A stretch of 64,000 bases of DNA from a virus. Lineage: Duplodnaviria; Heunggongvirae; Uroviricota; Caudoviricetes. Every line of letters starts with the position of its first letter. Position 1 is the first letter of the stretch. Below the pieces are notes generated by a model. It did no database searches. It was not told the origin of the DNA and saw nothing but the letters and a program-made list of their open reading frames with translations. Shown one piece after another: positions 47,320-47,340 of this stretch. Both the position numbers and the translations under genes were made by a program. The DNA lies in the IMG/VR virus record IMGVR_UViG_2778261533_000001, positions 1-64,000 of that record; one strand, 5' to 3'.

Positions 47320-47340
47320 TAATAAATTTATTAGAGCAAT
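47320..47340. promoter_or_regulatory. C1 operator (perfect 17-mer) overlapping the dmt stop codon
   Basis: AAATTTATTAGAGCAAT; the operator core encodes the last Dmt codons Leu-Leu-stop. Confidence 0.7.

Follow-up and report, generated by a model that had tools for sequence, protein, structure and literature searches.

A bivalent C1 operator at the end of dmt and the leader of the ban genes in a P1-like phage-plasmid

The dmt-ban region and the element that carries it

The region analysed here centres on the end of dmt (47331..50372, minus strand), which by its reading frame, its Pfam domains and its alignment to P1 Dmt encodes a protein of 1013 aa with C5-cytosine and N6-adenine methyltransferase domains. 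Downstream of dmt on the same strand, a leader of about 680 nt extends from the C1 operator described below to the gene for tRNA-Asn (GTT; 46583..46658), which is followed by that for tRNA-Thr (TGT; 46505..46580), both recognised by ARAGORN and Rfam. Next come the tci genes (44974..45572), with tciA at 45138-45572, tciB at 44974-45138 and then tciC, assigned from their open reading frames and the annotation of OP279344.1 and AF234172.1, and a tRNA gene with a CAT anticodon (44788..44863). The series is completed by ban, which encodes a DnaB-type helicase (43143..44513), and dbn (42145..43143), both identified as open reading frames and from the P1 annotation. This order, with all genes on one strand, is that of P1. 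The CAT tRNA is called tRNA-Met by ARAGORN and tRNA-Ile2 in the P1 record; as the orthologue of P1 tRNA-Ile2 it would be read as Ile after lysidine modification.

The window, i.e. the whole stretch of 64,000 nucleotides that was analysed, represents a P1-like phage-plasmid. In whole-window BLAST searches it showed 93-99% identity to AF234172.1 and OP279344.1, interrupted by unmatched blocks. Its gene order, opposite in direction to the P1 map, is ssb, darB, lxc, mat, ref, cre, lox, ImmC, pac, lpa, the pmg blocks and the tail genes, continuing with dbn-ban-tci, dmt-hrdC-uhr, rep/par and genes 23-21. Around the locus, positions 46000-49000 are 100% identical to the P1 isolate OP279344.1 and 97-99% identical to P1 c1.100, P7, RCS47, JL22, SJ46 and others. 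An identity of the whole window with OP279344.1 was nevertheless rejected, as the two share only 93-99% identity over the full length and blocks remain unmatched. The blocks without a P1 counterpart are 18156-19885, 26733-31232 and part of the rep/par region. The second of these is a 4.5-kb block that stands in place of the pmgU-to-humD neighbourhood, and its seven minus-strand open reading frames (95-211 aa) have no Pfam match. In the rep/par region, positions 53971-58593 do not align to OP279344.1, and the element may therefore, judging from the sequence, belong to another replication or partition (incompatibility) type. Plasmids of this kind are common in E. coli and Salmonella; at least 80% of this 8-kb region is carried by 174 of 5426 complete E. 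coli genomes.

The dmt gene itself differs from that of reference P1 (AF234172.1), whose Dmt comprises 754 aa and lacks an intein. Here, a class-1 intein of 341 aa with Hint and LAGLIDADG domains (aa 78-418; window ~49119-50141, minus strand) interrupts the C5-cytosine methyltransferase domain precisely at its catalytic motif, GTP|CQAFS; the intein begins with Cys and ends with His-Asn, followed by Cys+1. In OP279344.1 the annotated dmt also encodes 1013 aa, and at least the C-terminal part of the intein lies within the 100%-identical stretch.

The bivalent operator and the ban promoter

Scanning the window with the asymmetric 17-bp C1 consensus at up to three mismatches returned a single zero-mismatch match, ATTGCTCTAATAAATTT, at 47324-47340 on the minus strand. 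An earlier sequence-only reading had placed the sole perfect match at 47320-47340, over the end of dmt, with the terminal Leu-Leu-stop encoded by the operator core, and both points were borne out: the codons TTG CTC TAA occupy minus-strand bases 47339-47331, inside this site (Oban-a, or Op72a). The same reading had regarded the 17-mer as a single operator. The perfect half is real, but the operator is bivalent, its partner site having been missed, and the promoter that it would occlude lies inside it. The partner, ATTACACTAATAAATTT (Oban-b, or Op72b), lies in inverted orientation at 47313-47329 on the plus strand, has two mismatches to the consensus and shares the 6 bp AAATTT with the perfect 17-mer. 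Starting from 47345, the minus strand thus reads ggtat-ATTGCTCTAATAAATTT-ATTAGTGTAAT-atcgcc, and the 28-mer formed by the two half-sites is self-complementary at 24 of 28 positions. A weight matrix derived from 17 monovalent operators annotated in P1 gives Oban-a 27.2 bits, the highest value in the window, and Oban-b 22.4 bits. Both halves match the asymmetric consensus, and the cognate regulators are encoded on the same element: c1 (17306..18157, plus strand) is intact, its repressor of 283 aa carrying three substitutions relative to P1 C1.100, and lxc (bof; 12833..13081, plus strand) encodes a C1 co-repressor that is 100% identical to P1 Lxc. The same asymmetric 17-bp consensus has been quoted, and a ternary complex with Lxc described, in published work on C1 (PMC8546580).

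The window is identical to P1 AF234172.1 throughout the operator and for no fewer than 15 bp beyond it on each side. The exact flanks place Oban-a at 68667-68683 of that record and Oban-b at 68678-68694, and the interval 68667-68694 is labelled there as 'divalent C1-controlled operator Obanab; corresponds to former Op72ab; controls expression of ban', with the components Obana and Obanb. Compared with P1 Op72ab/Oban-ab and P1ban (AF234172.1 68667-68696), the 28 bp, the position at the dmt stop codon, the promoter hexamers and the downstream gene order are all the same; the operator itself shows no differences, whereas the element that hosts it here is a mosaic P1 relative. In P7 (AF503408.1 70972-70999), the same half-sites, annotated as Op(ban[a]) and Op(ban[b]), lie over the stop codon of the methyltransferase gene with tRNA-Asn and tRNA-Thr downstream, and the pair is annotated as controlling the tRNAs and the downstream genes; P7 differs in that the upstream gene is named dam and in that the region is 97% identical overall. 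A second instance of this geometry is found within the window at the c1 promoter (17195-17222), the counterpart of P1 Op99ab/Oc1ab, with the same inverted arrangement, 11-bp offset and 6-bp overlap. There, the b half is very degenerate (seven mismatches in P1; ACAAAAATAATAGATTT here), whereas both halves of Op72ab are near consensus.

Positions 47313-47340 hold two inverted 17-mers that share 6 bp, lie over the dmt stop codon and precede the tRNA-tci-ban genes. As judged from the sequence, they almost certainly represent Op72ab (Oban-ab), the bivalent operator at which the C1 repressor of this P1-like phage-plasmid would repress Pban. This operator is well known and already annotated in P1, and there is no novelty in the operator finding itself. 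The Schuster laboratory reportedly established, between 1987 and 1989, that Op72 is bivalent and where the ban promoter lies.

The promoter (P1ban; 47311..47339, minus strand) was carried over from the annotation of AF234172.1, which lists a non-predicted 'sigma 70 promoter P1ban' with a -35 hexamer at 68668-68673 and a -10 hexamer at 68691-68696. In the window, the corresponding -35 hexamer TTGCTC (47339-47334) and -10 hexamer TAATAT (47316-47311) are separated by a 17-bp spacer. Both hexamers fall inside the bivalent operator, and the dmt stop codon (47333-47331) lies within the spacer; the operator overlaps the stop codon because the final dmt codons double as the -35 hexamer. A generic promoter consensus scan called no promoter at the operator, the two hexamers matching at three of six and four of six positions (7/12). 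Pban is accordingly assigned by its homology to the promoter annotated in P1.

Published work on P1 and the annotation of its genome suggest the following course of events, from C1/Lxc binding and the activity of Pban to transcription past the leader hairpin described below. In a lysogen, C1 and its co-repressor Lxc would sit on both half-sites and cover both hexamers of Pban. Op72ab occupied in this way would exclude RNA polymerase, keeping a unit of about 5.2 kb, composed of the leader, tRNA, tci, tRNA, ban and dbn segments, switched off. Inactivation of C1, whether by Coi, by Ant or by heat, would allow the ban unit to be transcribed early in lytic growth, and the remaining operator-like sites of the window would constitute the rest of the same C1 regulon. 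After heat induction of P1 c1.100, ban was found among the induced C1-controlled genes, although less strongly induced than ssb, dmt or kilA (PMC4713147). The sequence-only reading had presumed that the operator gates a tRNA-tci-ban-dbn operon; the site and the gene order are indeed those of P1, but what comes first is the leader of about 680 nt and not the tRNAs.

C1 bound at the dmt stop codon might instead serve mainly as a roadblock or boundary against transcription that starts at Pdmt, reads through uhr-hrdC-dmt and enters the leader and the ban genes. The operator does sit precisely where two operons of the same orientation meet, and no terminator-like hairpin was found at 47340-47600, in the 3' part of dmt. 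However, Pdmt has its own C1 operator (Odmt, or Op68; 51623-51639, minus strand), so that both units would be off together in a lysogen, and an annotated, non-predicted promoter lies inside the operator at the dmt end. A roadblock could thus be an additional role only and not an alternative one, and we consider it unlikely to be the main function of a site that is better read as the repressor-binding site of Pban.

In order to follow the operator among relatives, 80 P1-like IMG/VR contigs were gathered via the C-terminal 300 residues of Dmt and not via the operator. The 28-mer was present in all 77 anchored contigs, exactly in 71 and with one or two substitutions in six variants, one of which changes the penultimate Leu codon of dmt to His; around the operator, variation clusters in the 4-5 nt directly after the -10 hexamer. 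Oban is thus a fixed feature of the P1-like group. The relatives are 90-100% identical in Dmt (at least 96% at 78 of the 80 loci), and conservation of the 28-mer is therefore weak evidence of selection. The relatives also bear on the possibility that C1 uses only the perfect 17-mer, as a monovalent operator, the neighbouring 17-mer with two mismatches being incidental. Most C1 operators of P1 are monovalent, and the perfect site by itself covers the -35 hexamer. On the other hand, the score of the partner falls within the range of accepted operators (15.7-27.2 bits), its inverted offset of 11 bp is the one seen in Oc1a/b, it covers the -10 hexamer, it is kept in 77 of 77 relatives, and the annotations of both P1 and P7 record it as half of a bivalent operator. 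A monovalent operator is on these grounds very improbable, and we retain Op72ab as a bivalent site.

Operator-like sites across the window

At up to three mismatches, the consensus scan returned 15 matches in the 64-kb window compared with 0.19 expected, the expectation being taken from dinucleotide-preserving shuffles, and none of 100 shuffles reached 15. The weight matrix gave 19 sites at or above its cut-off of 15.7 bits, while the maxima of the shuffled sequences averaged 13.6 bits and did not exceed 17.6. Sites were assigned to P1 operators through exact flanks or local alignment, and 16 of the 19 map one-to-one to annotated P1 operators. Apart from the AT-richness of the motif, nothing suggests that the operator match arose by chance or from the base composition of an AT-rich gene end, and the counts refute such an origin so clearly that it has virtually no probability left.

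The sequence-only reading had counted about 15 further sites, which is close to the 14 found in addition to Oban-a at up to three mismatches, and each of the locations it named (ssb, ref, cra, ImmC, lpa, ~31.5, ~33.6 and ~37.3 kb, and uhr-hrdC-dmt) proved to be an annotated P1 operator. Its view that these sites give a read-out of the C1 regulon is supported by the 16 mapped sites; three of the 19 are not annotated P1 operators.

Besides Oban-a, Oban-b and Odmt, the operator of the upstream uhr-hrdC-dmt operon, the sites that map to P1 operators are distributed as follows. Ossb (Op21; 1798-1814), Omat (13945-13961) and Oref (14611-14627) all lie on the minus strand. The ImmC region contains Oc1e (16648-16664, minus strand), Oc1d (16731-16747, plus strand), Oc1c (17023-17039, plus strand) and Oc1a (17195-17211, plus strand), the last being bivalent with its degenerate partner Oc1b (17206-17222, minus strand), which also has a P1 counterpart. 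Further along the window are Olpa (23169-23185, minus strand), OpmgT (31493-31509, minus strand), OpmgRb (33586-33602, plus strand), OpmgRa (33635-33651, minus strand), Oppp (36352-36368, plus strand), which starts with TATGCAC here and with CATGCAC in P1, and O26 (37259-37275, plus strand). This wild P1-like phage-plasmid thus retains the C1 regulon almost operator by operator. For P1-like plasmids, the 17-bp matrix may serve as an annotation aid that recovers the starts of early operons and flags lineage-specific changes, here the additional ImmI-like cassette with an operator of its own and the stronger site upstream of c8.

One site without an annotated P1 equivalent, TTTGCTCTAATAAATTG (19863-19879, minus strand), begins 4 nt past the stop codon of pacB and heads a cassette in the first of the blocks that have no P1 counterpart. 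It is followed by an isrK-like RNA (19710-19788; Rfam, 62 bits), a C4 antisense RNA (19578-19665; Rfam, 77 bits), an icd homologue whose product is 77% identical to P1 Icd (19302-19523) and a gene for a KilAC-type antirepressor (18190-19305), an ant homologue whose product is 55% identical to Ant1. Because isrK, C4 RNA, icd and ant homologues come next, the site is recognisable from its sequence context as the counterpart of Op51 (Oc4) in a diverged ImmI-type cassette (18190-19885, minus strand) between pacB and c1. The canonical position of ImmI lies outside the window, and the cassette may be either a second copy or a relocation.

A second site, at 15087-15103 (minus strand) in the spacer between cre and c8, reads ATTGCTCTAATTCTTTG here, while P1 and P7 both have ATTGCTATAATTATTTG. 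Through the two substitutions the 11-nt operator core becomes perfect and a TATAAT is weakened, and judging by these sequence changes C1 control over c8 may have been gained in a lineage-specific manner. A third candidate, ATTGCCCTAATGTATTT (5649-5665, minus strand, three mismatches), is located inside the 5' end of darB and points toward prt; it is identical and unannotated in P1. With 17.3 bits it remains within the shuffle maximum of 17.6 bits, is indistinguishable from chance and was dropped as an operator.

The leader and its tmRNA-like RNA module

On its transcribed strand, the leader of about 680 nt contains no open reading frame of at least 50 codons. Its first part, about 185 nt after Pban (47120-47305, minus strand), is highly conserved and ends in a strong hairpin resembling an intrinsic terminator, GCCCATC-TTCG-GGTGGGC followed by seven T residues (47131..47150, minus strand), which is positioned some 155-175 nt past the presumed start of Pban and is conserved in P1-like contigs. 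Part of the Pban transcripts may therefore end at the hairpin as a short RNA. Two variants of the hairpin differ by compensatory changes, which derive from a single block replacement. P1 annotation places a 'dicF-like region' here (window 47115-47216), but this segment gave no Rfam match to DicF even at an E-value cutoff of 10. The predicted fold of 188 nt of leader was no more stable than that of shuffled sequences (z = -0.89), and the alignment of P1-like leaders contains only two compensatory pairs, both due to one block replacement; a specific fold of the first 180 nt is not claimed. A piece of the leader at ~47174-47268 has about 76% identity to lambdoid and Stx phages.

The second part of the leader contains a module (46925..47121, minus strand) that extends far beyond P1-like phages. 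Distant BLASTN searches with the leader matched 300 phage records, about 22 of them P1-like and about 280 not. The non-P1 matches, at 60-90% identity, cover only leader positions ~191-367 (window ~47120-46944) and lie in spacers that carry no annotation, in many cases next to a tRNA gene of the same orientation. The module occurs in Punavirus, Ackermannviridae, Schitoviridae, Lederbergvirus, Chaseviridae and many siphophages, and the non-P1 records come from at least five virus families; in the Lederbergvirus HK620, the copy sits between pR'/qut and the late terminator.

The module has a conserved 5' motif, GGTTTTCGTC, and the segment shared among phages contains the invariant GTTTTCGT. It also contains a short frame (47064-47032 in the window, ANDDLMMVAA*), of the form GCA AAC GAT ... 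GC. GC. TAA, which is exactly 10 codons long in 116 of 120 IMG/VR matches, 115 of which fit AN[DE]xxx[LM]x[AV]A-stop. The encoded peptides, among them ANDDLMMVAA, ANDDVVLMAA, ANDEQFLAVA, ANEEMYLAVA and similar ones, resemble the tag of tmRNA (SsrA): the frame has no start codon, begins with an alanine resume codon (GCA) and ends in hydrophobic-Ala-Ala. In several cases, DNA variants with differences solely at third codon positions specify an identical peptide. An alternative frame starting with ATG was rejected as the conserved frame, as the length of its peptide varies. An A-rich UAAAU context before the tag and a pseudoknot after it add to the likeness. The H-type pseudoknot 3' of the tag has 91.8% of its cells paired compared with 31-50% in slid controls, 11 of its 15 pairs show compensatory change, and its score was reached by none of 500 shuffles. 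A second pseudoknot-like fold after the tag is less certain, and upstream of the tag a PK1 was not established.

In contrast to tmRNA, the module has no recognisable tRNA-like domain, which would comprise an acceptor stem with G3-U70, a T arm and a 3' CCA end; a T-arm-like minihelix adjoins it in only 13 of the 62 contexts outside P1-like phages and never in the P1-like contexts. ARAGORN called no tmRNA in the window or in 120 IMG/VR contexts. With Rfam, the tmRNA families stayed below the gathering threshold and matched the tag region only, and the module belongs to no Rfam family. Outside the tag, local alignment to E. coli ssrA was no better than that of shuffled sequences. Because of this lack of a tRNA-like domain, the sub-threshold Rfam matches, the negative ARAGORN result and the absence of similarity to ssrA, we do not file the module as a tmRNA. 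From its sequence, it is best described as a putative tmRNA-like, tag-bearing structured RNA that is shared across unrelated phage families.

In a survey of tmRNA genes from 2014, phage copies were listed only in mycobacteriophages, Bacillus phage G and DS6A (PMC4131195), and no description of the tag-bearing module was found in the literature searched. It is conceivable, though we hold it only tentatively, that the first RNA released when C1 leaves Op72ab includes a member of an undescribed, widespread phage RNA family. If the tag frame is decoded, phages would supply their own tagging template or would tap or divert the trans-translation of the host, which in P1 would be under direct C1 control. 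The 'ban operon' starts with non-coding RNA modules common to unrelated phage families, a feature more interesting than the operator.

A recurring junction is composed of a strand X, CACAACAGGTAAGGG, and a complementary strand Y, for example CAGCGTCCTTTCCTGTTG or CAGTGCTCTTTCC, and is found in the window at 46866-46946 and ~46486-46500 (both minus strand) and also at loci L098, L100, L114, L116, L173 and L193. A terminal helix formed by flanking X and Y strands around the module was considered and rejected, as X covaries with the following and not with the preceding Y (L173, L193). In P1-like as well as in unrelated phages, X and Y form long hairpins round variable inserts, one type of which is a T-arm minihelix, GGTAGAGGGTTCGAATCCCTAC, and they flank RNA modules and tRNAs. 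These junctions could be processing sites or recombination boundaries.
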